A DNA stretch of 64,000 nucleotides, taken from the NCBI GenBank assembly GCA_965371445.1, contig CBDUYN010000035.1:127-64126 (forward strand), given 5' to 3'. This DNA is from an uncultured bacterium (GTDB taxonomy: Bacteria > Acidobacteriota > Thermoanaerobaculia > Multivoradales > J023). The stretch's first letter is position 1. Each line of letters starts with the position of its first letter. A program made the translations under genes and the position numbers. Shown here in pieces: positions 8,549-46,580 of the stretch. The notes below the pieces were generated by a model. It saw only the letters and a program-made list of their open reading frames with translations, searched no databases and was not told the DNA's origin.

Positions 8549-9106
8549 TCACCTGCGCAACCGGAAGTCCCGTACGCAGTGCCAGACGCCGTCCTCGTCT
8601 TTCGCGAGCGGCCGGATTCCGCCGAACCTTCCCAGCCTTCGAGATCGCTCGACGGTGCTCTCCGAGATCTGCGGATCGCCTTCGAAGTGGAGGTCGTGGC
8701 GTTGCTCGCTCTTGAAGCCGTCGGCGGTGATTACGAAATGGACGTGGGCGGGCACTCCGCCGCCGGGGTAGGCGCCGGGCCGGATGGTGGAGATCTCGTA
8801 GCGGCCCTCGGCGTCGGTTTGAAGCGTCGCCTTGAGGCGCGGGTTGGCCGACGAGGTGGTCTCGCCCGAGTAATAGCCCCGGGCGTCAGTATGGTAGACG
8901 TAGAGCTCGGCTCCGGCCACCGGGGTCTCGCCGTCGTCGGCGAAGACAGTCCCCGCGAGGTGGAGGCGTTCGCCGGGCTCGTCGGTTCCTGCGATGACGA
9001 CCGAGGAGCCGGGCGTCCGGGCGTCCGGCTCCTCGGCGATCGCCGGGGCCGCGGCAAGGAGTAGGGCGAGAGCGGCGAAGGGGACGCTTCTGCGGAAAGA
9101 CATCAT
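8549..9106 (-). CDS. intradiol ring-cleavage dioxygenase-like protein, secreted
   Basis: Start at MMSFRR within the longer ORF. Signal peptide present. Motifs GTVFADDGETPVAGAELYVYHTDARGYY and RPAHVHF are typical of the protocatechuate/catechol intradiol dioxygenase core. Confidence 0.65.
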   Translation of the reverse strand: MMSFRRSVPFAALALLLAAAPAIAEEPDARTPGSSVVIAGTDEPGERLHLAGTVFADDGETPVAGAELYVYHTDARGYYSGETTSSANPRLKATLQTDAEGRYEISTIRPGAYPGGGVPAHVHFVITADGFKSEQRHDLHFEGDPQISESTVERSRRLGRFGGIRPLAKDEDGVWHCVRDFRLRR

Positions 9107-9264
9107 GGCTGAGCTCCTCTGCGGTACCTGGAGACCTCTGTGCCCTTGTACGCAGATTCCGGACGCCGGGTTTGTCAAGACCCTGTAAAGGACGTGGCCG
9201 GCGGCGGGAGAGGGGAGATGTGATACGCTGAGGCCGGAGGGTAGAGAAGAGGATAGAGAAAAGT

Positions 9265-10206
9265 ATGATCAGCGGCCTCAATCAGGAAGTCGACATCCTC
9301 GGCAAGACGTTTCACTTCCAGACGGAGCTCACGGGCGGCGGGATGGGGTCGGCGCGTACCGAGGTCTTCGTCGGCGGGAAGATCGTCGCCACCCGGGAAA
9401 CGTCGCTGGGGCTGGAGGAGGGCGAGAGCGAGGACGAGGAAGCGATCCGCGCTCGTATGAAGGAGGTTCACGGCAAGATCTTGAGCGGCTTCGTGGATCG
9501 TGCCAAGCGCTACCAGGAACGCGAGCAGGAGGGCTCGCTCCCGCCGGTGAGAGAGCCTTCGGGCAACGTCGACACCGCCGAGGCCGTCGATTCTCAAACG
9601 CTCGCCGCGGTCCGGGTCCTGGTGGCGCAGAAAAAGGGCCTCTACAACACCGATTCCGCTCCGCCGGCGTCTCCGCTGATCACCCCGCCGTCACCGGGCG
9701 CCGCTTCCGAATCGCTGCGCATTCGTCACCTCTTCGGCAAGTTCCGCCGCCAGATCGGCGCCGATCCCGCGGTCGACCACGGCCGCGTCGGCGATCGGCT
9801 GGACCGGGCTGCCGCCGGCTTCGAATGGATGGCCGGCTCGCCCAGCTTCGCGGAGATCCGGGTCGACGAGCAGGTGCGCTGCAACCTGCTCAAGGAGCAC
9901 GTCGAGGAGTGGGTCGCCGGCGGTCGCCGGGCCGACGGGGCCGCGAGGATCTGGTCGGGGATCCTGGCCTTCGTCGGCTATCTGGCGGAGATCAACGACC
10001 GCAGCGACCTCGTCAGCTTCGACCAGCAGCTCCTGGTCTGGGGTATCGACACGATCCAGCGCCACGGCGTGACCGCGGAGATCCTCGAGCGCTTCGGGGA
10101 CCTCTATGGCCGCGACCCCGGCCTCGATGTCCTGCTCGACGAGCCCGAAGGCGTGACCGCTGCCATCTGGACGGGTCACCTGCGCCGGGTGCTGACCCAG
10201 ATGTAG
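9265..10206 (+). CDS. hypothetical protein
   Basis: 313-aa ORF with consistent codon usage. No recognisable domain. Confidence 0.5.
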   Translation: MISGLNQEVDILGKTFHFQTELTGGGMGSARTEVFVGGKIVATRETSLGLEEGESEDEEAIRARMKEVHGKILSGFVDRAKRYQEREQEGSLPPVREPSGNVDTAEAVDSQTLAAVRVLVAQKKGLYNTDSAPPASPLITPPSPGAASESLRIRHLFGKFRRQIGADPAVDHGRVGDRLDRAAAGFEWMAGSPSFAEIRVDEQVRCNLLKEHVEEWVAGGRRADGAARIWSGILAFVGYLAEINDRSDLVSFDQQLLVWGIDTIQRHGVTAEILERFGDLYGRDPGLDVLLDEPEGVTAAIWTGHLRRVLTQM

Positions 10207-10221
10207 CGGGAGATCGGTGGA

Positions 10222-11526
<1,305 letters not shown>

Positions 11527-26361: not shown

Positions 26362-27405
26362 ATGGGAGAGGCGCAGAACGGCGTCAACGTCGTCGTCCTC
26401 GACGCTTGCCGCGACAATCCCTTCCGCGGCTTCCGGACCTTGAGCCGCGGCTTGGCGCAGACCCGTGCGCCGAAAGGGACGCTGATCGCCTACGCCACCG
26501 CGCCGGGCGACGTGGCGGCCGACGGCGACGGCCGGAACGGCATCTTCACGGGGCATCTGCTCCAGGCGTTCCGCGAACCGGGCCTCCAGATCGAGCAGGT
26601 CTTCAAGAAGGCGCGCGAGGCCGTCGATGCGGCGACCGGCGGACGGCAAGTGCCTTGGACGTCCTCGTCGCTGGTCGGAGAGCTGGTGCTCGCGAAGAAG
26701 GAGCCCGCACCCGCGTCGCCTCCGCCACCCGTCGTGCAGGAAGGCGCGCTCGAGCTTGCCCTGTGGGAAGAAGTCAAGGACAGCGAAGCCGTCGCAGAGT
26801 TACGGGCCTACCTGAGGAGCTATCCCGAGGGCACTTTCTCGGAGCTTGCGCGCCTGCGGGTTCTTAAGCTTGAGATTTTGCCGCCGAGGCAGCCGCGGCC
26901 CGGACAGGAGTGGACGGATCCCGGAACCGGAATGACCCTGCGATACATTCCGGCTGGAAAGTTCATGATGGGAAGCCCCAAAGACGAAGTCGATCGCGAG
27001 GAGGATGAAATCCGGCACGAGGTAGAGCTGACCCGAGGCTACTGGATGGGAGAGACGGAGGTGACCCACGGACAGTGGCTGGAGCTGATGGGAAACAACC
27101 CTTCCGCTTTCTCAAGCTGCGGAGATGACTGTCCGGTGGAAACCGTAAGCTGGTACGACGCGGTGACGTTCGCGAACCGGCTGTCGGAAAAGGCCGAACT
27201 GCCCGGTTGCTATGAGCTGACCTGCGAGGGATCCCCGGGTGAGAAGGGATACGTCTGCTCCACGGTAGAGTTGAAGGATCTGACCTGCGAAGGATATCGG
27301 CTGCCCACGGAGGCTGAATGGGAGCACGCGTCCGGAGCGGAGGGCGAAGGAGCCTCGGGTGCGCTCTGGCTCCTTCTCAGTCCGTCCCGGATGCGAAGAG
27401 GCTGA
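26362..27405 (+). pseudogene. gene remnant: caspase-like (peptidase C14) C-terminal portion fused to a formylglycine-generating-enzyme (FGE/SUMF1)-like domain; truncated at both ends
   Basis: - The ORF begins directly at the C14 catalytic-Cys region (VVVLDACRDNPF). The upstream His-containing half is absent, and an in-frame stop lies 2 codons upstream.
- The FGE-sulfatase-like domain (YIPAGKFMMGSP...RHEVELTRGYWMGETEVT...YRLPTEAEWEHA) stops about 100 aa short of a complete FGE fold.
- The region is lower-GC than its flanks. Confidence 0.55.
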
Positions 27406-33020: not shown

Positions 33021-33902
33021 ATGACGATCTTTCTGCGAATTCCCGTCCTGATCTTGGCCCTCGTGGCCGTGGCCCACGCCGCCGCCGCGCAGGCTCCGGC
33101 GCCTGGCGGCGTCGAGGTGACCTACCTGGCCAACGAGGGCTTCCTGCTCGCCGCCGGGGAGACGTGTGTCCTCGTCGACGCGCTCTTCACCGACGGCCTC
33201 GGCGGTTATCAGGTGCTCCCCTCGGAGAAGCTTGGCCGCCTTGAGGCCGGCGAAGGGCCCTTTGCCGGCGTCGACCTCGTGCTGGCCACCCACTACCACG
33301 GCGATCACTTCGACCCGCGCTCCGTCGGCCGTCACCTGGCGAGGAACCCGGGGGCCAGGTTCGTCTCGACCGGGCAGGCCGTCGAACGGCTGCGCGAGAC
33401 CCTGGGCGAGGACTTCGCCGCGGTGGCCGAGCGGGTGACCGCGTTTTCTCCGGCGGTGGGGGAGCGCGAGTCGTTCGTCCATGCCGGAATCCGTCTGACC
33501 GTGCTGAACCTCCACCACGGGCACGGCCGCCGGCCGGCGGTGCAGCACCTCGGCTTCGTGATCGCGATCGGAGGGTGGAAGCTCCTCCACATCGGCGACA
33601 CGGAGGTGACCCGCGACGAATTGGGTGCCTACGACTTGGCGGAGGAGGGAATCGATTTCGCCTTCCTGCCCTACTGGCGCCTTCTGGGCGGCCAGGACGA
33701 CATGGAGGAGATCCGTCCGCGCCTTGTCGTCGCCATGCACGTCCCGCACCGGGGCGCGCCGCCGGACTACTTCTCGCCAGCCTCAAACCGCGACGGCCTC
33801 CTGCGGGTCCTGGGCGAGAGCGTCCCCGGGGTCTGGGTGGCGTCGAAGCCGATGGCGTCGCAGCGGTATCCGCCGGCGGAGAGCCTTGAGGCCGGGGAGT
33901 GA
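33021..33902 (+). CDS. MBL-fold metallo-hydrolase, secreted
   Basis: Start at MTIFLRIPVLILALVAVAHA (signal peptide). Metallo-beta-lactamase His motif (ATHYHGDHF) and later H/D ligands. Confidence 0.7.
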   Translation: MTIFLRIPVLILALVAVAHAAAAQAPAPGGVEVTYLANEGFLLAAGETCVLVDALFTDGLGGYQVLPSEKLGRLEAGEGPFAGVDLVLATHYHGDHFDPRSVGRHLARNPGARFVSTGQAVERLRETLGEDFAAVAERVTAFSPAVGERESFVHAGIRLTVLNLHHGHGRRPAVQHLGFVIAIGGWKLLHIGDTEVTRDELGAYDLAEEGIDFAFLPYWRLLGGQDDMEEIRPRLVVAMHVPHRGAPPDYFSPASNRDGLLRVLGESVPGVWVASKPMASQRYPPAESLEAGE

Positions 33903-33923
33903 GGATCTGCTAGGATCGATCTC

Positions 33924-34952
33924 ATGATCAACTCCGTCGAGATCGAGAACTTCCGCGGGATTCGCCGGGGAGCCTTGAAGGACCTGGGCGCGTTGACGAT
34001 CCTTACCGGGCCCAACGGCTGCGGCAAGAGCACGATCGTCGATGCTCTGTTGATCGCGGCGAGCCCGAAGCCCTGGGAGGGTGTCGGGCAAGCCGTGGAG
34101 CGTCATCGGGCGACCCACGACGGCGCTCGTTGGCTCATCGGGCGCGAGGGTGAGGCGGCAAGGATCTTCGTGAAAACACAACGCACAAGAGGCAGCGAGT
34201 TGAAATGGGAACGGATTCCGATTGCCGAGGCATCTGGCGGCATTCCGCCTCACAGCCGGATATGGATTACCGTGGTTGATTACGTCGGGGACTTGCAGGA
34301 GAATACATTCTTCGCCGCCGGCTACAAGGAGATAGTGTTCTCCGGGGATGGTTCCTATACACCGGGGCAGAGTGGTGGCATTCCCATTCCCTCTTCTCCT
34401 CTGGGTCACGTCCGGCTAGTGGATTCCTCTACACCCGTCCCCCTCGACGAGGCGTTTTCCGGAACTTTCCGGCAAGGCCGCAAGAAGGACGTATTGGCGC
34501 TTCTGGAAGCTCTCGTCTCGGATCTGGACGGAGTCGAGATCCTCGTCGAGGACGACAGGACACCGATGGTGTACGTCGATGACGGTCGGAACCGCGTTCC
34601 CGCCAGTCTCTCAGGAGACGGCATATACGCTTTTCTTCAGCTGGCTCTGGAGCTCGCTGCAAGCCCCGGAGGTCTCGTCCTCGTCGAGGAGCCTGAAGTC
34701 TTTCAGCATTTGCGCGCCATCCGACAGTCTGCCCGAGCTCTGGTCGCGGCCGTTCGCCGCGGTGTCCAGATCGTCGTTACGACTCACAGCCTGGAACTGA
34801 TCGACGCCATACTCGGCGAATCTGAGGAGGAGGACCGCGAACGACTCGTGCTGTTCAATCTCCTGCTCAGCGACGGCGAGCTCAAATCCAGCCGTTTTCC
34901 CGGGCCGGATGTCGCCTTTGCTCGCGAATCCATGGAGAAGGATCTGCGATGA
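33924..34952 (+). CDS. ABC-type AAA ATPase (AAA_15/AAA_21, OLD/AriA-like) - ATPase component of a two-gene putative defence module
   Basis: N-terminus IENFRGIRRGALKDLGALTILTGPNGCGKSTIVDAL (Walker A). Also ABC signature-like LSGDG, Walker B (LVLVEEPEVFQH) and H-loop (VVTTHSLELID). Region GC is about 58% versus about 69% in the flanks. Confidence 0.75.
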   Translation: MINSVEIENFRGIRRGALKDLGALTILTGPNGCGKSTIVDALLIAASPKPWEGVGQAVERHRATHDGARWLIGREGEAARIFVKTQRTRGSELKWERIPIAEASGGIPPHSRIWITVVDYVGDLQENTFFAAGYKEIVFSGDGSYTPGQSGGIPIPSSPLGHVRLVDSSTPVPLDEAFSGTFRQGRKKDVLALLEALVSDLDGVEILVEDDRTPMVYVDDGRNRVPASLSGDGIYAFLQLALELAASPGGLVLVEEPEVFQHLRAIRQSARALVAAVRRGVQIVVTTHSLELIDAILGESEEEDRERLVLFNLLLSDGELKSSRFPGPDVAFARESMEKDLR

Positions 34953-35689
34953 CGCGTCAGCACGTCATCCTTTGCGAAGGCTTCGACGATCGAGCGTTCT
35001 GGGCCGGTTGGCTTATCTACCTCGGGTGCCAGGATCAAGGACGGCGTCGCCCCGTATACGACGCTTGGGGCGAAGAGGTCAAGAACGGAAAGTATCTCTT
35101 CACGACGCGTGGCGCCTCGAACGTCTTAGTCGACCCGGTCCATGGAGGGAGCGAGGTCCGGGCAACGGCGATGACCTACTTCCGTCAGCACAATACCAAA
35201 CCGATCGGTCGAATGATTGTCAACATTGACTCGGACGCCGAAGGAGAGGGCCGTACGTCGAGCGCGCGTGAGGTCATCGCGGGTATCGTCCGCGACTACG
35301 ACGGAGGAGCCGTCGGTGATCTGGATGGCCCCCATTCCATCGACGATGTTGAGGTTTGGCCTGTCGTCTGGGAATGTCTCGACTCTGGCGAGATTCCTGG
35401 GATCCCCCGCCAGCAAACACTCGAACGGCTTGCAGCTGCCGCAATCGTAGCTGCTTATGCGGAACGAGGTGAACCGGTCCAGCGTTGGCTCGAGGCTGAG
35501 CCAGTCGAGGAGAACACGAATCACAAGAACTACGGCATGTCCTATTTCGCCAAGTGGTATGCTCAACGCCACGGTCACGGTGACTTCTATCGAGCCCTGT
35601 GGCGCGACGAGGCCGTCGCTGAGCAGCTCAAGGCCAGGTTGACGGCGACCGGCGCCTGGCAGCTGGTAGAAGAGTTGGTGGCGGATTAA
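34949..35689 (+). CDS. Toprim-like (DUF4435/DUF4276/OLD-C-terminal-like) putative nuclease partner of the upstream ABC ATPase
   Basis: ATGA start/stop overlap with the ATPase gene. N-terminal HVILCEGFDDRAFW (a Toprim-like conserved Glu) and a later IVNIDSDAEGEG (DxD). Low-GC composition. Family assignment is by motif only. Confidence 0.55.
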   Translation: MTRQHVILCEGFDDRAFWAGWLIYLGCQDQGRRRPVYDAWGEEVKNGKYLFTTRGASNVLVDPVHGGSEVRATAMTYFRQHNTKPIGRMIVNIDSDAEGEGRTSSAREVIAGIVRDYDGGAVGDLDGPHSIDDVEVWPVVWECLDSGEIPGIPRQQTLERLAAAAIVAAYAERGEPVQRWLEAEPVEENTNHKNYGMSYFAKWYAQRHGHGDFYRALWRDEAVAEQLKARLTATGAWQLVEELVAD

Positions 35690-35716
35690 ACCAGCCTGTC
35701 ATTCAAAAGGAAGAAG

Positions 35717-35971
35717 ATGCTTTTCATCAAATCATTCAAAGGCTACGAGGACCGCATCAGCGAGATCGACAGCGAGGTCAACGCCTGGGTCCTGGCGCAG
35801 GGCGCCACTATCCAGGTCATGGACGTCAAGATCGCCTTGGCTCACGAGCCGGGTTCAAGCTCCGGCATGGGCGACCTGATCTACGTCGTGGTCTACCGCG
35901 CCGACTTGCCCGCGCCGGAAATGCCGCCGGCCGGAGCGGTTGGCGGCAGGCCGGAAGGATTCGAATACTGA
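35717..35971 (+). CDS. small hypothetical protein (84 aa)
   Basis: ORF with a lower-GC 5' half. Its stop overlaps the ATG of the downstream TPR-like gene (TGATG). Confidence 0.4.
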   Translation: MLFIKSFKGYEDRISEIDSEVNAWVLAQGATIQVMDVKIALAHEPGSSSGMGDLIYVVVYRADLPAPEMPPAGAVGGRPEGFEY

Positions 35972-37263
35972 TGGGACTTTTTGACCTCTTCAAGAAAGAC
36001 CCGGAGAAGCTCCTCGAGCGCGCCGGGAAACTCCTCGAACGCGGCGATCCGGCCCAGGCGCTGCGGCTGGCCCGCCAGGCGGGAGCAGACCCGCGCGCTG
36101 GCGAGATCGTGCGCCGTGCCCGCGAAGCCCTGGTCGAGGCCGGTCTCGAACGCGCCAAGAAGGCCGAGGAGTCGGATTACCTCGACGACGCCGTGGAATG
36201 GATCCGCAACGCCGCCGAGAACGTCGACGGCGCGCGCCGCGAGGAGCTCTTGGCCCGTGCCGAGGCGCTGCTCAAGCGGGCCGAGTCCGAGGCCGAGCGC
36301 CGCGCCGCGCAGGCGCTCGCCGCGTCCGAGCCCGTCGCTGATGCCGCCGAGGACGGCGGCATCAGCAAGGTCGACGTCGCCTACGACGCCCTCGTCGGCA
36401 TGCTCGACGACGACCTCGCCGATCGCTACGACGAGCAGCCGGAGGCCTTTCGGCGCGCTTTCGTCGATCTGAACGAAGGCCGTGCCGAGGCGGCGCGTCC
36501 GGTCCTCGAAGAGCTCGCCGACGAGGGCCCCGGGGACACCGTAAGGCGCTTTGAGCGCGGCCGTTGCCGGCTCCACGACGGCGAATACCAGGGGGCCCGC
36601 GAGGATTTCGAAGCGGTGTGGCAGAGCTTCGGCGACGAGCCAATCGACCGCGTAGGGACCCTCTCGGTGCCCGGCCTCTGGGCCGAGGCCATGCTGGGAC
36701 TGAGCAAGACCGCCGAGCTTCTCGAACGCCTCGACGGCGTCGCCGACCCGAGCCACGGCGACCCCAACCTCTGCCGCCGCTACGCGGCCGCCCTCGTCCA
36801 GGAGGAAAAGCTCGACGACGCCGAGCGCTTTCTCGTCCAGGCGACCGGCACGTTCTCCCAGGATTCGGACTTCCCGTTCCAACTGGCAGTGGTCCTGAAG
36901 CGCCAAGGCCGTACAGACGAGGCCATCGACTGCCTGGAAGGGTCGGTCGCCCCAAGCTGTGCGCCGGCCACCTGCGGCCGGGTGCCGAAGCACTTGCCGT
37001 CGCTGCGTGCCCTCGCGCGCCTCTACCTCAACGAGCGTCGCGCTCCGGATCGGGTCCATGTTTTGCTCGACCACATCGCCCAGGCGCTCGCCGGACAGCT
37101 CGGACGCGAGGACTACGTCCTGATGGCCGAATACCACGAGCAGGTCGGCGACGTGGAAGGCGCCCGCGAGGCCCGTGCCGCGGCTCAGCACGCGGGCGAG
37201 AGCACCGCGGAGCCGGCGGCCGGCGCGTCTCCGAGCCTGACCTCGGGTCGGCGCGTCCTCTAG
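35971..37263 (+). CDS. TPR-like helical repeat protein (hypothetical)
   Basis: 430 aa, all-helical with TPR-like segments. Native high GC. Confidence 0.55.
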   Translation: MGLFDLFKKDPEKLLERAGKLLERGDPAQALRLARQAGADPRAGEIVRRAREALVEAGLERAKKAEESDYLDDAVEWIRNAAENVDGARREELLARAEALLKRAESEAERRAAQALAASEPVADAAEDGGISKVDVAYDALVGMLDDDLADRYDEQPEAFRRAFVDLNEGRAEAARPVLEELADEGPGDTVRRFERGRCRLHDGEYQGAREDFEAVWQSFGDEPIDRVGTLSVPGLWAEAMLGLSKTAELLERLDGVADPSHGDPNLCRRYAAALVQEEKLDDAERFLVQATGTFSQDSDFPFQLAVVLKRQGRTDEAIDCLEGSVAPSCAPATCGRVPKHLPSLRALARLYLNERRAPDRVHVLLDHIAQALAGQLGREDYVLMAEYHEQVGDVEGAREARAAAQHAGESTAEPAAGASPSLTSGRRVL

Positions 37264-43469: not shown

Positions 43470-46400
43470 GTGCGCTACCACGCCGACCTGCACATTCATT
43501 CGAAGCATTCCCGCGCCACCAGCCGCGACTGCGACTTGGAGCACCTGGCCTGGTGGGCCCGTCGCAAGGGCCTGACGGTCGTCGCCACCGGCGACTTCAC
43601 CCACCCGGCCTGGTTCGAGGAGATCCGGGAGAAGCTCGTCCCCGCCGAGCCGGGGCTCTTCCGGCTGCGCGGCGACATCGAGCGCGAGGTCCTCTCGACG
43701 CTGCCGGCCGCCTGCCAGGGGCCGGTGCGCTTCCTGCTCGAAGTCGAGATTTCGACCATCTACAAGAAAGACGACCGGACCCGCAAGGTCCATCACCTGA
43801 TCTACGCGGCGACGATCGACACCGCGTCGCGCTTCCGCGACCGCCTGGCCACGGTGGGCAACATCGCTTCCGACGGCCGCCCGATCCTCGGCCTCGACTC
43901 ACGTCACCTCTTGGAGATCACCCTCGAGAGCGGCGAGGACGCCTACCTCGTCCCGGCCCACGTCTGGACGCCTTGGTTCGCCGTCCTGGGTTCGAAGTCG
44001 GGTTTCGACTCGGTCACCGACTGCTATGGCGACTTGGCGGAGCACATCTTCGCGGTGGAGACGGGCCTGTCGTCGGATCCGCCGATGAACTGGCGCGTTT
44101 CGGACCTCGACCGCTACACCCTGGTCTCGAATTCCGACGCCCACTCGCCGCCGATGCTCGGCCGCGAGGCCTGCGTTTTTGACACCGAGCTCGACTACTT
44201 CGCCATGCGCCGGGCTTTGGAGACCCGCGAGGGCTTCGGTGGCACCGTGGAGTTTTTTCCCGAAGAGGGGAAGTATCACCTCGACGGCCACCGCGCCTGC
44301 GCCGTGCGTCTCGAACCGGAGGAAACGCGCCGTCGCGGCGGGCTCTGCCCGTCCTGCGGCAAGGCCGTGACAATCGGGGTGCTTCACCGGGTGGAGACTC
44401 TCGCGGACCGTCCGGAGGGAGCCCGGCCTGAGACCGCGGCGCCCTTCCGCAGCCTCGTCCAACTGCCGGAGATCCTCTCGGAGCTCCACGGCGTGGGGCC
44501 GAAGTCGAAGACGGTCGAGCGCGCGGTCTCGGCCCTCGTCTCCCGCCTCGGACCGGAGATGGAGATCCTCGAAGAGGTGCCGCTGGAGGATGTCGAGCGC
44601 ACCGCCGATCCGCTCCTCGCGGAGGCCCTCCGGCGGCTTCGCCGCGGCCAGGTGCGTTGCGAGGGAGGCTACGACGGAGAGTACGGCACGATCCGTCTCT
44701 TCGAGCCCGAGGAAGTGACGTCGCAGCTGCGGCTGTTCGCGTTGCGAGAGCCTCCCAAGCCGGAGCCGACGCCGGAACCGGTACCGGCGCCCGAGCCCGT
44801 GGCCTCGGAGCTTGCCGCGGTCCATACCGTCCAAGAGAGCCTCCCTCTTGCGTCCGGACCGCCCCTGCTCGCGGCGCTCGACCCCGACCAGCGAGCCGCC
44901 GCCGAGGTCCTCGACGGGGCGCTCCTGATCGTTGCCGGCCCCGGTACCGGCAAGACCCGGACCCTGACGCACCGCATCGCCCATCTCATCGCCCGGGGTA
45001 CGCCGGCCTCGAGGTGTCTGGCGCTGACCTTCACCCGCCGCGCCGCGACGGAGATGCGCGAGCGGCTCGACGCGTTGCTGCCGGCCGCGGGCCGAATCCT
45101 CGTGACCACGTTTCACGGTCTGGGGCTTCGCATCCTGCGCGAGCAGCACGCCGAAGTCGGGCTCGACCGCGCCTTCCGCGTCGCCGACGAGGCGATGCGC
45201 CTGGAGGTCGCGGCGCAGGTTTTTGCCTTGTCCCGTTCGGAGGCGGTCCGGCTCATCGCCGATCTCGCCGCGGCGCGGCGCGACGGGGAGGCCCACGAAC
45301 GCCTGCCTGCCTACCGCCTGGCGCTCTGGGAACGGGAGCTCGTCGATTTCGACGATCTGCTCGCCCTGCCGGTGGAGCTCTTCGCCGAGCGTCCCGAGGT
45401 CCTGGAGGGCTACCGGCAGCGCTTTCGCCACCTCTCGATCGACGAGTACCAGGACATCGACGCGCTCCAGTACCGCCTCATCCGCCTGCTGGCTGGCGAG
45501 GGCGGCAACCTCTGCGCGATCGGCGACCCGGACCAGTCGATCTACCGCTTCCGTGGCGCCGACGTGGGCTTCTTCCTGCGTTTCCAGGAGGACTTCGCGC
45601 CGGCTCGGCTCGTCGAGCTGCGGCGTAACTACCGTTCGCAGCCGACGGTGCTTCGGGCGGCCCTCCAGGCCATCGCGCCGTCGAGCCTTGTGGCCGGCCG
45701 TCAGCTGGAGCCGGTGGGGGAGCACAAGGCAGAGCCGGTCGTCGTCCTCGAGGCGGCGAGTGAGCGGGCCGAGGCGGAGCTCGTGGTCCGCACGATCGAG
45801 GAGCAGCTGGGGGGGACCTCCTACTTCTCGATCGACAGCGGACGCGTCCGCTCCGAGGACGCGGCGCTCATGGGCGAGCTCTCCTTCGACGACTTCGCGA
45901 TCCTCTATCGGACCCACGCCCAGGCGGAGGCGCTCGTCGAGGCCCTGGAGCGGGCCGGCATGCCCTACCAGAAGCGCTCCCACGAACGGCTGATGGAGCG
46001 CGACGAGGTTCGCCTCCTCGTCCACGTCCTGGAGTCCCAGGCGTCGGCGGACGAGACGAGCGTCCTCGAGAGACTCCGCCAAGCGCGGCAGGAAGCCGGT
46101 GGGGTCGGCGATTGTGCCCTCGACCAGGCCCTGGAGCTTGTCGCGCCGCTCGCCGAGCGGCACGGTAGCGACCTCGCCGCCTTCCTCGCCGAGATCGCCC
46201 TGGGAGCCGAGGTCGACACCTGGGACCCGCGGGCGGAACGCTTGTCGCTTTTGACGCTCCACGCGGCGAAGGGCCTGGAGTTCCCCGTGGTCTTCCTCGT
46301 CGGCTGTGAGGAGGGACTGATGCCCTTTTCGCCACCGTGGGAGGACGCCGACGTCGACGTGGCCGAGGAGCGAAGGCTCTTTTTCGTCGGCATGACCCGG

Positions 46401-46580
46401 GCACGTTCGCGCCTCTATCTTTCGTGGGCGCGCCGCCGCCGGCTGCGCTCCGAGGTGGTGAAGAGGCGGCCCTCGCCTTTCCTGTGCGACATTGAGGAGA
46501 CCCTCCTGAGCCGTCGCCGCAATGAGCCGGTGCGACGGCGTCGCCGCGGCGAAGACGTCCGGCAGCTACGGCTGCTTTGA
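43470..46580 (+). CDS. PHP-domain/Zn-ribbon (COG1379-like) phosphoesterase fused to UvrD/PcrA-family superfamily-1 DNA helicase
   Basis: 1036 aa.
- N-terminal PHP domain: MRYHADLHIHSKHSRATSRD...TGDFTHPAWF, ...VSNSDAHSPPMLG.
- Cys ribbon: CPSCGKAVTIGVLHRV.
- UvrD-like motifs: IVAGPGTGKTRTL (Walker A), LALTFTRRAATEM, DEYQDID, and C-terminal helicase motifs (LTLHAAKGLEFPVVFLVG, FFVGMTRAR). Confidence 0.8.
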   Translation: MRYHADLHIHSKHSRATSRDCDLEHLAWWARRKGLTVVATGDFTHPAWFEEIREKLVPAEPGLFRLRGDIEREVLSTLPAACQGPVRFLLEVEISTIYKKDDRTRKVHHLIYAATIDTASRFRDRLATVGNIASDGRPILGLDSRHLLEITLESGEDAYLVPAHVWTPWFAVLGSKSGFDSVTDCYGDLAEHIFAVETGLSSDPPMNWRVSDLDRYTLVSNSDAHSPPMLGREACVFDTELDYFAMRRALETREGFGGTVEFFPEEGKYHLDGHRACAVRLEPEETRRRGGLCPSCGKAVTIGVLHRVETLADRPEGARPETAAPFRSLVQLPEILSELHGVGPKSKTVERAVSALVSRLGPEMEILEEVPLEDVERTADPLLAEALRRLRRGQVRCEGGYDGEYGTIRLFEPEEVTSQLRLFALREPPKPEPTPEPVPAPEPVASELAAVHTVQESLPLASGPPLLAALDPDQRAAAEVLDGALLIVAGPGTGKTRTLTHRIAHLIARGTPASRCLALTFTRRAATEMRERLDALLPAAGRILVTTFHGLGLRILREQHAEVGLDRAFRVADEAMRLEVAAQVFALSRSEAVRLIADLAAARRDGEAHERLPAYRLALWERELVDFDDLLALPVELFAERPEVLEGYRQRFRHLSIDEYQDIDALQYRLIRLLAGEGGNLCAIGDPDQSIYRFRGADVGFFLRFQEDFAPARLVELRRNYRSQPTVLRAALQAIAPSSLVAGRQLEPVGEHKAEPVVVLEAASERAEAELVVRTIEEQLGGTSYFSIDSGRVRSEDAALMGELSFDDFAILYRTHAQAEALVEALERAGMPYQKRSHERLMERDEVRLLVHVLESQASADETSVLERLRQARQEAGGVGDCALDQALELVAPLAERHGSDLAAFLAEIALGAEVDTWDPRAERLSLLTLHAAKGLEFPVVFLVGCEEGLMPFSPPWEDADVDVAEERRLFFVGMTRARSRLYLSWARRRRLRSEVVKRRPSPFLCDIEETLLSRRRNEPVRRRRRGEDVRQLRLL

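Follow-up and report, generated by a model that had tools for sequence, protein, structure and literature searches.

Two overlapping genes occupy a dip in base composition within the 64,000-nucleotide stretch of DNA analysed here (the window), and the question they raise is whether they encode an anti-phage system. Pairs of ABC ATPase and Toprim protein are a recurring immune design, as in OLD, Gabija, PARIS and AbiL; to our knowledge, only PARIS among these has been worked out mechanistically. A preliminary description of the locus had proposed an undescribed minimal variant of this theme, and its account of the layout holds. The genes overlap by ATGA, and both products fall short of AriA (464 aa) and AriB (305 aa) in length. 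The low-GC islet is real, as it appears both in 500-nt windows (0.58–0.61 across 34000–36000 vs 0.68–0.73 on either side) and in GC3, which comes to 0.70 in gene 1 and 0.68 in gene 2 (∼0.69 for the pair), compared to 0.84–0.88 (∼0.86) for the neighbouring genes. The pair sits inside a co-directional string of genes, and its flanks in the window consist of metabolic and signalling genes. A search for hallmarks of insertion gave none: the window contains no tRNA genes, no meaningful direct or inverted repeats flanking the module and no integrase or transposase among its neighbours; promoter, terminator and Rfam signals are likewise absent around it. The features of the locus are collected in Table 1.

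Table 1. Features of the two-gene locus and their positions in the window.
Feature	Position	Strand	Remarks
Gene 1	33924..34952	+	ORF, 342 aa; ABC ATPase, Rad50/SMC-type head, without coiled coil
Walker A GPNGCGKST, gene 1	34008..34034	+	G29, N31, G34, K35 and S36 family-invariant
Interval missing in the orthologous locus of close relative L090	34045..35612	+	tblastn and blastn of L090 vs the window; junction sequences
Hypervariable β-rich insert, gene 1 residues ∼72–170	34137..34433	+	Indel-rich, poorly conserved alignment columns; six predicted strands
ABC signature LSGDG, gene 1	34608..34622	+	G231 and G233 invariant
Walker B and D-loop region LVLVEEPEVF, gene 1	34674..34703	+	E255, P257 and E258 invariant
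H-loop THS, gene 1	34782..34790	+	T287, H288 and S289 invariant
EKDLR tail, extreme C-terminus of gene 1	34935..34949	+	L341 and R342 invariant
Gene 2	34949..35689	+	ORF, 246 aa; Toprim domain and C-terminal helical domain; PH0156/DUF3226-like; predicted two-metal nuclease effector
ATGA start/stop overlap, gene 1/gene 2	34949..34952	+	Translational coupling
CEGFDDR motif, gene 2	34973..34993	+	Toprim Glu E10, with D14 four residues on; R15 invariant; invariant columns
DxD motif D94-S-D96, gene 2	35228..35236	+	Both Asp invariant
QTLER motif, gene 2	35414..35428	+	Begins helix 1 of the helical domain; Q156, L158, E159 and R160 invariant
84-aa ORF	35717..35971	+	Third ORF, downstream of gene 2

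Gene 1 encodes an ABC ATPase of the AAA_15/AAA_21 (OLD/PARIS/Septu-type) group, with its catalytic motifs all intact. The protein matches Pfam AAA_21 (5e-18, 66.6 bits, cut-off 27) and AAA_15 (2.7e-16, 60.6 bits, cut-off 32.1), and every motif previously quoted for the ATPase core was recovered when its coordinates were checked. The best PADLOC model is PDC-M38A (3.4e-26), with further matches to AbiLi (3.8e-20), AriA (∼1e-19) and the HEC-01A models. The gene 1 profile aligns with the ATPase of TsOLD at 1.5e-12 and with P2 Old at a probability of 95%. The hypervariable insert could serve as a sensor or a specificity surface, and the C-terminal EKDLR tail may contact the partner protein.

The product of gene 2 is, as judged from its predicted structure, a Toprim-fold protein. 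The model contains a four-stranded parallel β-sheet with flanking helices, in which the glutamate follows β1 and the DxD motif follows β3. Its top 60 structural matches include OLD, GajA and AriB; neither RecR nor RNase M5 appears there. The conserved Glu and DxD noted previously are present as CEGFDDR and DSD, and are invariant in the family. The active site of BpOLD consists of E400, E404, D455, D457, T506 and E508, of which T506 and E508 are the metal-B ligands (PMC6755086). E10 and D14 of gene 2 are spaced exactly as E400 and E404, and the spacing of the complete series (E10, D14, D94, D96, T157 and E159) matches that of the six BpOLD residues. Based on register and secondary structure, T157 and E159 probably correspond to the metal-B ligands. 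The protein is thus predicted to carry the complete set of two-metal nuclease residues and would be expected to act as a nuclease.

At the sequence level, none of the models in Pfam, PADLOC, NCBIfam and the PHROGs covers the gene 2 family. Single-sequence searches with gene 2 gave no match in Pfam, PADLOC, NCBIfam, PHROGs or the PDB sequences, the family profile matched no PDB sequence, 2p62 included, and the window protein matched neither a PADLOC model nor DUF3226 (PF11536) at E≤1. DUF3226 is the Pfam family touched most often by the relatives of gene 2 (11 of 43); all of these matches stay below the gathering score of 27 bits and span the N-terminal half only, the best reaching 21.5 bits (E=2.3e-4). 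PDB 2p62 (PH0156 of Pyrococcus horikoshii), which we take to be a member of DUF3226 and whose orphan fold was solved in 2007, has 14% sequence identity to gene 2. As PH0156 has no known function, this match speaks to the fold and says nothing of the mechanism. DUF4435 (PF14491) has no significant match (one of the 43 relatives, at 0.091), nor does DUF4276, and OLD-like_TOPRIM (PF20469) is unmatched by the window protein and reached by three relatives below the cut-off, at values of at least 0.041. The sub-threshold matches to these three families are confined to some members of the gene 2 family; in one member, the start of the OLD-like_TOPRIM profile aligns to residues 2–24. Alignment of the family with P2 Old by hhalign gave a probability of 0.09%, in the wrong register. 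Among the PADLOC models, PDC-M38B is matched by five of the 43 relatives (marginally, best E 0.018) and AriB by one, and weak mad4 matches occur in some. Since no DUF4435, DUF4276 or OLD-like_TOPRIM profile is matched significantly, the Toprim assignment rests on the predicted structure. The proposal of a Toprim/DUF4435/DUF4276-like protein survives for the predicted fold and is not supported by the profiles.

The two genes form an obligate pair in Acidobacteriota, Planctomycetota, Armatimonadota and Myxococcota. Of 88 loci, 84 have gene 1 directly upstream of gene 2 and the other four are cut by contig ends; a 4-nt NTGA overlap is found in 59 of the 65 intact pairs outside the window. The two genes co-diverge, with a Spearman coefficient of 0.64. 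The proteins are members of conserved families in which the catalytic and signature motifs are invariant, which argues that the observation is not due to chance. No third gene recurs beside the pair, and no recurrent neighbour was found across 60 loci. The distribution is patchy, with the module present in only ∼80 of 185,579 species genomes, spread over the four phyla; some genomes hold it in duplicate, and roughly eight loci show decay. At one locus (L019), gene 2 is full-length and keeps every invariant residue, and gene 1 is reduced to ∼70 C-terminal codons. In 49 of 51 loci, the module is poorer in GC than the DNA flanking it. The atypical composition is therefore a trait of the whole family, and more than the mark of a recent insertion at the window site.

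The module is dispensable, as in a close relative (L090) the same locus has lost 1.57 kb from its interior. The module occupies different chromosomal sites in different lineages, so that it is not confined to one conserved housekeeping operon; one planctomycete group retains it at a syntenic housekeeping site. The Pfam families of its neighbours are housekeeping families, and only ∼5 of 103 nearest neighbours (27 independent loci) match any PADLOC model. Searches of sequenced phages and plasmids and of IMG/VR contigs yielded no copies, and the module is enriched neither beside known defence genes nor on mobile elements. Of the idea that such pairs occupy variable defence islands rather than conserved housekeeping operons, the variable placement is upheld and the defence-gene surroundings are not. 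The 84-aa ORF, which the preliminary description had included in the islet, lies outside the module, since none of the first 88 loci collected (L001–L088) has it beside the module. It has a host-like GC3 of 0.82, its stop overlaps the ATG of a downstream TPR gene, and it is present without the module in another locus (L089). A three-gene system including this ORF was rejected on these grounds. What remains is an accessory cassette of two translationally coupled genes that is self-contained.

A defence role for this cassette is plausible by analogy. We favour, at slightly better than even confidence, a conflict (anti-phage or anti-mobile-element) system working on the PARIS/OLD principle as its most likely function. 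In such a system, the two proteins would form a physical complex, with an oligomer of the gene 1 ATPase serving as sensor and regulator and the gene 2 Toprim protein as an effector that cleaves nucleic acid, either DNA or tRNA/RNA. A trigger would turn the nuclease on, and the active nuclease would then arrest the infected cell or destroy the invading nucleic acid, which would account for a defence phenotype. In its favour are the invariant ATPase motifs, the residue spacing shared with BpOLD, the PH0156 match of a genuine AriB, the obligate pairing, 4-nt overlap and co-divergence of the genes, the PADLOC matches and the accessory behaviour of the module. Against it stand the housekeeping surroundings, the syntenic site of one planctomycete group and the lack of copies on plasmids, phages and IMG/VR contigs. 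Two further findings run counter to a defence function: HEC-01, the only tested PADLOC candidate of the same architecture, gave no protection, and there is no significant sequence-level link between gene 2 and the Toprim domains of OLD or AriB. A more specific version, which we put forward tentatively, is that the module represents a distinct immune family of soil and aquatic phyla in which the insert senses the trigger and the ATPase activates, rather than merely sequesters, the PH0156-like nuclease. This activation logic fits the single genome in which the nuclease gene is intact and the ATPase is missing.

The same gene order would also suit a toxin-antitoxin-like addiction module, in which a constitutive Toprim toxin is neutralised by the ATPase made just before it, and the pair persists selfishly with no dedicated anti-phage role. 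The upstream neutraliser, the downstream effector and their translational coupling are consistent with this arrangement, as are the patchy distribution, the solitary placement outside defence islands, the frequent decay and the deletion in L090, which took out the catalytic parts of both genes together. PARIS itself has been described as type II TA-like in behaviour (PMC13064643). However, the complete gene 2 of L019, which has no intact gene 1 beside it, is hard to square with a constitutively lethal toxin, although this is a single case and expression there may also be lost. Moreover, an ATPase of 342 aa whose catalytic motifs are fully conserved far exceeds the needs of an antitoxin, and the module is missing from plasmids, where addiction modules thrive. 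We consider an addiction module improbable. A housekeeping or stress complex for nucleic-acid processing, acting in DNA repair or RNA maturation like RecF-RecR (also an ABC ATPase plus a Toprim protein), SbcCD or RNase M5, appears distinctly improbable. Such a complex would suit the housekeeping neighbours (LexA adjoins in two loci), the syntenic site kept by one planctomycete clade and the position of the window pair in a co-directional string with neither promoter nor terminator signals specific to it. It is difficult to reconcile with a module that is sparse among species genomes, lost by deletion in a close relative, pseudogenised in several lineages, atypical in GC at nearly all loci and inserted at sites that differ by lineage, and with top structural matches of gene 2 that hold OLD, GajA and AriB but lack RecR and RNase M5. 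An identity with RecF/RecR was rejected based on the distribution and the missing RecR match.

The pair might instead be a divergent member of a catalogued system, PARIS or PDC-M38, with nothing new beyond sequence drift. This is suggested by gene 1, for which PDC-M38A is the best model and AriA models also match, and by the PDC-M38B and AriB matches among the gene 2 relatives. On the other hand, gene 2 of the window matches no PADLOC model even at E≤1, the PDC-M38B matches of its family are marginal, and DUF4435, the family of AriB, is matched by a single relative. AriA is also longer than gene 1 and has a different insert, and PDC-M38 is itself a prediction. We therefore regard mere drift from a catalogued system as unlikely.

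If the pair is a conflict system on the PARIS/OLD principle, the family would contribute a small two-protein form of the immune design (342 + 246 aa) that is easy to express, and would carry it into phyla in which phage defence has hardly been studied. It would also exemplify a system located outside defence islands that escapes PADLOC-type detection: because its nuclease has no model and its location is outside such islands, current defence-finding tools would miss it. The family could yield the first functional lead for the PH0156/DUF3226 fold, and its first function if the reading as an immune family is true. If the role is not defence, the module would still offer a clear example of a nuclease-ATPase pair that is horizontally mobile and can be followed through gain and loss at a single locus.

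Among the known systems, PARIS consists of the ABC ATPase AriA and the DUF4435 Toprim nuclease AriB, and has been proposed as a ‘class 4 OLD’. It resembles the present pair in having separate, adjacent genes for the ATPase and the Toprim nuclease, with the ATPase first, and HHpred ranks PH0156 first among the matches of a genuine lactococcal AriB (PMC11381338). In PARIS, an AriA hexamer sequesters AriB until a phage trigger, such as Ocr, frees it to cleave tRNA. Gene 1 is shorter than AriA (342 aa vs 464 aa), with a β-rich insert unlike that of AriA, and gene 2, also shorter than its counterpart (246 aa vs 305 aa), matches neither the AriB nor the DUF4435 profile. PARIS is typically found on phages, satellites and plasmids and in defence hotspots, whereas the module is chromosomal, solitary and absent from phage and plasmid collections. 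The OLD family (class 1, P2 Old and TsOLD; class 2, GajA of Gabija) likewise joins a Toprim two-metal nuclease to an ABC ATPase. In contrast to the single OLD polypeptides of 510–630 aa, the present system has two ORFs joined by a stop/start overlap, both in the window and in the 59 overlapping pairs elsewhere, and gene 2 has no sequence-level match to the Toprim domain of P2 Old. Gabija differs further in its UvrD/GajB helicase, which has no adjacent equivalent here, where the 84-aa ORF and the TPR protein lie downstream. A Gabija-like tie to the nearest UvrD-like gene (43470–46580) was rejected, as it lies 7.5 kb away behind four unrelated genes and does not recur.

AbiL (AbiLi/AbiLii) and RloAB are also two-gene, abortive-infection-type systems made up of an ABC ATPase plus a Toprim/OLD-like protein. 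Gene 2 has no AbiLii or RloB-type match in PADLOC or Pfam, and the hosts differ: Firmicutes plasmids and Campylobacter for AbiL/RloAB, compared to environmental members of the four phyla for the module. PDC-M38 and HEC-01, PADLOC candidates found by ‘guilt-by-embedding’, share the two-gene ABC ATPase and TOPRIM architecture. They are defined by embedding in BREX, DISARM, RM or Hma systems, and the module is embedded in none of these. We found no literature on DUF3226 or PDC-M38. PDC-M38, despite being a prediction, is the closest catalogued relative of the pair: its A model is matched by gene 1, at an E value taken apart from PADLOC's own thresholds, while the window gene 2 matches neither its B model nor that of HEC-01. 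We conclude that the pair belongs, as a new variant, to the known class of two-gene ABC-ATPase and Toprim systems, which includes PARIS, AbiL, RloAB, HEC-01 and PDC-M38.

Gene 1, encoding an ABC ATPase, and gene 2, encoding a Toprim-type protein, are joined by the ATGA overlap reported in the preliminary description, and every motif quoted there was found, with its coordinates verified. The pair lies in a tight co-directional string with spacings of 21, -4, 27 and -1 nt; within the window, nothing resembling a dedicated promoter or terminator was seen, and Rfam gave no match. The low-GC islet claimed earlier is evident in both windowed GC (0.58-0.61 across 34000-36000 vs 0.68-0.73 in the flanks) and GC3, the drop falling mainly at third codon positions (genes 1 and 2 have GC3 values of 0.70 and 0.68, vs 0.84-0.88 for the six neighbouring genes). 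A 14-nt near-repeat just 5' of the two start codons may reflect a ribosome-binding context common to both genes, or chance.

Coordinates of the module, associated features and altered copies (window positions unless a locus is named)
Feature	Coordinates	Strand	Remark
Caspase/FGE-sulfatase fusion protein	26362-27405		347 aa
Near-repeat AGGATCTGCTAGGA	33902-33915		5' of gene 1
Gene 1	33924-34952	+	342 aa
Invariant ...DLR C-terminus of gene 1	34935-34952		family alignment A2
Near-repeat AGGATCTGCGATGA	34939-34952		5' of gene 2
Gene 2	34949-35689	+	246 aa
84-aa ORF	35717-35971	+	same direction as genes 1 and 2
UvrD/REP-type helicase	43470-46580		1036 aa
Deletion in L090	~34045-35612		1.57 kb
Remnant in L090	L090:615-808		33924-34044 joined to ~35613-35689
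Tandem copies in L054	L054:3697-5513 and 9009-10780
Split gene 2 in L067	L067:8526-10546
Truncated gene 1 in L019	L019:9780-10723

Gene 1 is an ABC ATPase: it scores above the Pfam thresholds for AAA_21 and AAA_15, and when 37 homologues are aligned, no variation is seen at the Walker A, signature, Walker B and H-loop residues. In the same alignment, residues ~72-170 are hypervariable and the last two residues, Leu341 and Arg342, are likewise invariant. AlphaFold models the protein confidently (pLDDT 93), with a β-rich variable insert and no coiled coil. The model compares best with Rad50/SMC heads (scores of 20-21), followed by PtuA (17.5), AriA (16.0), GajA (15.9), RecF (15.6) and TsOLD (15.2). 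TsOLD is the nearest solved ATPase by sequence profile (1.5e-12), and the P2 Old ATPase is matched by hhalign with 95% probability. The top PADLOC model is PDC-M38A (3.4e-26); next come models for NsnB, AbiLi, AriA, HEC-01A and Old. The first base of the gene 2 start codon is drawn from the final Arg codon of gene 1 (CGN-TGA giving A/G/T-TG). Since this overlap does not force the Arg and Leu of the gene 1 tail, the invariant DLR terminus is probably functional.

The profile check proposed for gene 2 left the window protein unmatched in Pfam and PADLOC, and its sequence alone also found nothing in NCBIfam, PHROGs or PDB sequences. It has at least 176 close homologues and belongs to a family of 581 clusters at 50% identity (among 1.84 billion representatives), all stand-alone proteins of ~230-270 aa. 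Glu10, Gly11, Asp14, Arg15, Asp94, Asp96, Trp141, Gln156, Thr157, Leu158, Glu159, Arg160, Arg173 and Lys193 are invariant or nearly so, as are several C-terminal aromatic residues. Judged by the predicted structure of gene 2, this family, which has no name, adopts a Toprim-type fold. The best comparison is with PH0156 of P. horikoshii (2p62; score of 19.3, 217/241 residues aligned), followed by the C-terminal region of a class 2 OLD (6nk8; 9.5), TsOLD (9.3), GajA (7.6), AriB (6.3) and the Retron-Eco2 Toprim (6.0). PH0156 is also the top HHpred match of genuine lactococcal AriB in a published table (PMC11381338); thus, PH0156-like proteins and AriB are recognised relatives.

The two-metal site of BpOLD consists of Glu400, Glu404, Asp455, Asp457, Thr506, Glu508 and Lys562 (PMC6755086). 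Its spacing is matched by the gene 2 invariants Glu10 and Asp14 (ExxxD), Asp94 and Asp96 (DxD) and Thr157 and Glu159 (TxE), the last pair opening the first helix that follows the sheet. From this register and the secondary structure, we infer that these residues correspond to the BpOLD site, and several invariant basic residues could assume the role of Lys562. The sequence-level tie to Toprim-type families is weak: among 43 relatives of gene 2, 11 touch DUF3226 (all below the gathering score and only in the N-terminal half), five PDC-M38B, three OLD-like_TOPRIM and one DUF4435, and hhalign of the family with P2 Old gave no match.

The pairing of the two genes is obligate. We collected 88 loci with gene 2 homologues (8 via exact-protein look-ups and 80 via one genome per GTDB species); in 84, a gene 1 homologue lies directly upstream on the same strand, and the other four begin within ~140 nt of a contig end. 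A 4-nt NTGA overlap is common to 59 of 65 intact pairs, and the pairwise identities of the two genes co-vary (Spearman 0.64 over 1,830 locus pairs, which are not independent). There is no recurrent third gene; the best neighbour cluster occurs at 8 of 60 loci, in variable positions and on both strands. The 84-aa ORF is ruled out as a module component: it is missing from all 88 loci, its GC3 is host-like, its stop overlaps the ATG of a downstream 430-aa TPR gene (TGATG), and at a further locus (L089) its homologue stands without either the module or the TPR gene. It is nonetheless a genuine small gene, though a very rare one, with only three homologues (54-69% identity) and no family match.

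By our count from record titles, the 80 species-level loci comprise ~35 from Planctomycetota, ~19 from Myxococcota (including Sorangium cellulosum So ceGT47 and Hyalangium versicolor), ~13 from Armatimonadota, ~8 from Acidobacteriota/Thermoanaerobaculia and ~5 from unclassified or probably mis-binned MAGs. L037, labelled Nealsonbacteria yet carrying the planctomycete synteny, is probably mis-binned, and L021, labelled Enterobacterales, is likely mis-assigned given its GC of 72%. Module GC is below that of the flanks in 49 of 51 loci (median -4.6 points); the dip is therefore a family trait. The chromosomal site varies from lineage to lineage. In Thermoguttaceae/Planctomycetaceae, seven loci (L007, L023, L032, L035, L037, L043 and L047) share a syntenic site whose neighbours are housekeeping genes, one of them LptD-like, implying vertical retention in that group.

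In distribution and dynamics, the pair behaves as accessory genes do. The Chthonomonas MAG locus L054 holds two complete, diverged tandem copies 3.5 kb apart, and genome AM_0876 has two unlinked copies (L062 and L064). Seven loci are visibly decayed. In L067, gene 2 is split by a ~1.2 kb insert, which may be an IS element and lies between residues ~89 and ~73 of the two fragments. In L019, from a Myxococcota MAG, gene 1 is cut to its last ~70 codons, yet gene 2 keeps its full length and every invariant residue; in L088 the reverse holds, gene 1 being intact and gene 2 riddled with stops. L090, the orthologous locus of a close relative (flanks at 80-84% nucleotide identity), retains the order MBL-like gene, module remnant, 84-aa ORF and TPR gene. 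There, codons 1-40 of gene 1 (92.5% identity) run out of frame into the final 25 codons of gene 2, leaving a 49-codon stub, and imperfect 8-nt repeats (CGTCGATG / CGTCGCTG) bound the deletion. This deletion shows that the module was ancestral there and is dispensable.

Genomic context neither supports nor counts out a defence role. In the window, the pair is flanked by genes for a HAD phosphatase, an MBL-fold hydrolase, a TPR protein, a 5'-nucleotidase, a GGDEF protein and a Ser/Thr kinase, with no integrase, transposase or known defence gene among them. Across 27 independent loci, ~5 of 103 nearest neighbours match any PADLOC model at 1e-10, all generically, and the most frequent Pfam families are of housekeeping or lineage-specific type. 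No relatives of the module were found in 72,556 plasmids, 50,697 phages or IMG/VR contigs. Farther out in the window are an unusual fusion of caspase (Peptidase_C14) and FGE-sulfatase domains, 6.5 kb upstream, and, 7.5 kb downstream, a helicase with an unannotated N-terminal extension of ~470 aa and no link to the module in other loci.

The reading with most support is that of a split system of OLD/PARIS type, in which an oligomer of the gene 1 ATPase would regulate a two-metal nuclease, gene 2, with the variable insert of gene 1 as the likely surface for specificity or sensing. In PARIS, AriB is sequestered by an AriA hexamer until phage proteins trigger its release; it then dimerises and cleaves tRNA. 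The intact gene 2 of L019, beside a truncated gene 1, is weak evidence against a toxin that is constitutively lethal.

Systems that pair an ABC ATPase with a Toprim/OLD protein on two genes are a recognised class, whose members include PARIS, AbiL, RloAB, HEC-01, PDC-M38 and a pair from Nostoc that has no name; HEC-01, the PADLOC pair of this design that has been tested, gave no protection. The module resembles PARIS and OLD in architecture. The gene 2 family fails membership tests for DUF4435/AriB, OLD-like_TOPRIM and DUF3226, and its link to PDC-M38, itself a PADLOC prediction, is marginal. Thus, we regard the module as a variant within this known class, OLD/PARIS-like in architecture and outside demonstrated membership of any named family, with a putative, unproven role in defence. 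Its two-gene design will not surprise a specialist; it is a reasonable experimental candidate on account of its orphan nuclease family, its unusual host phyla and its location outside defence islands.
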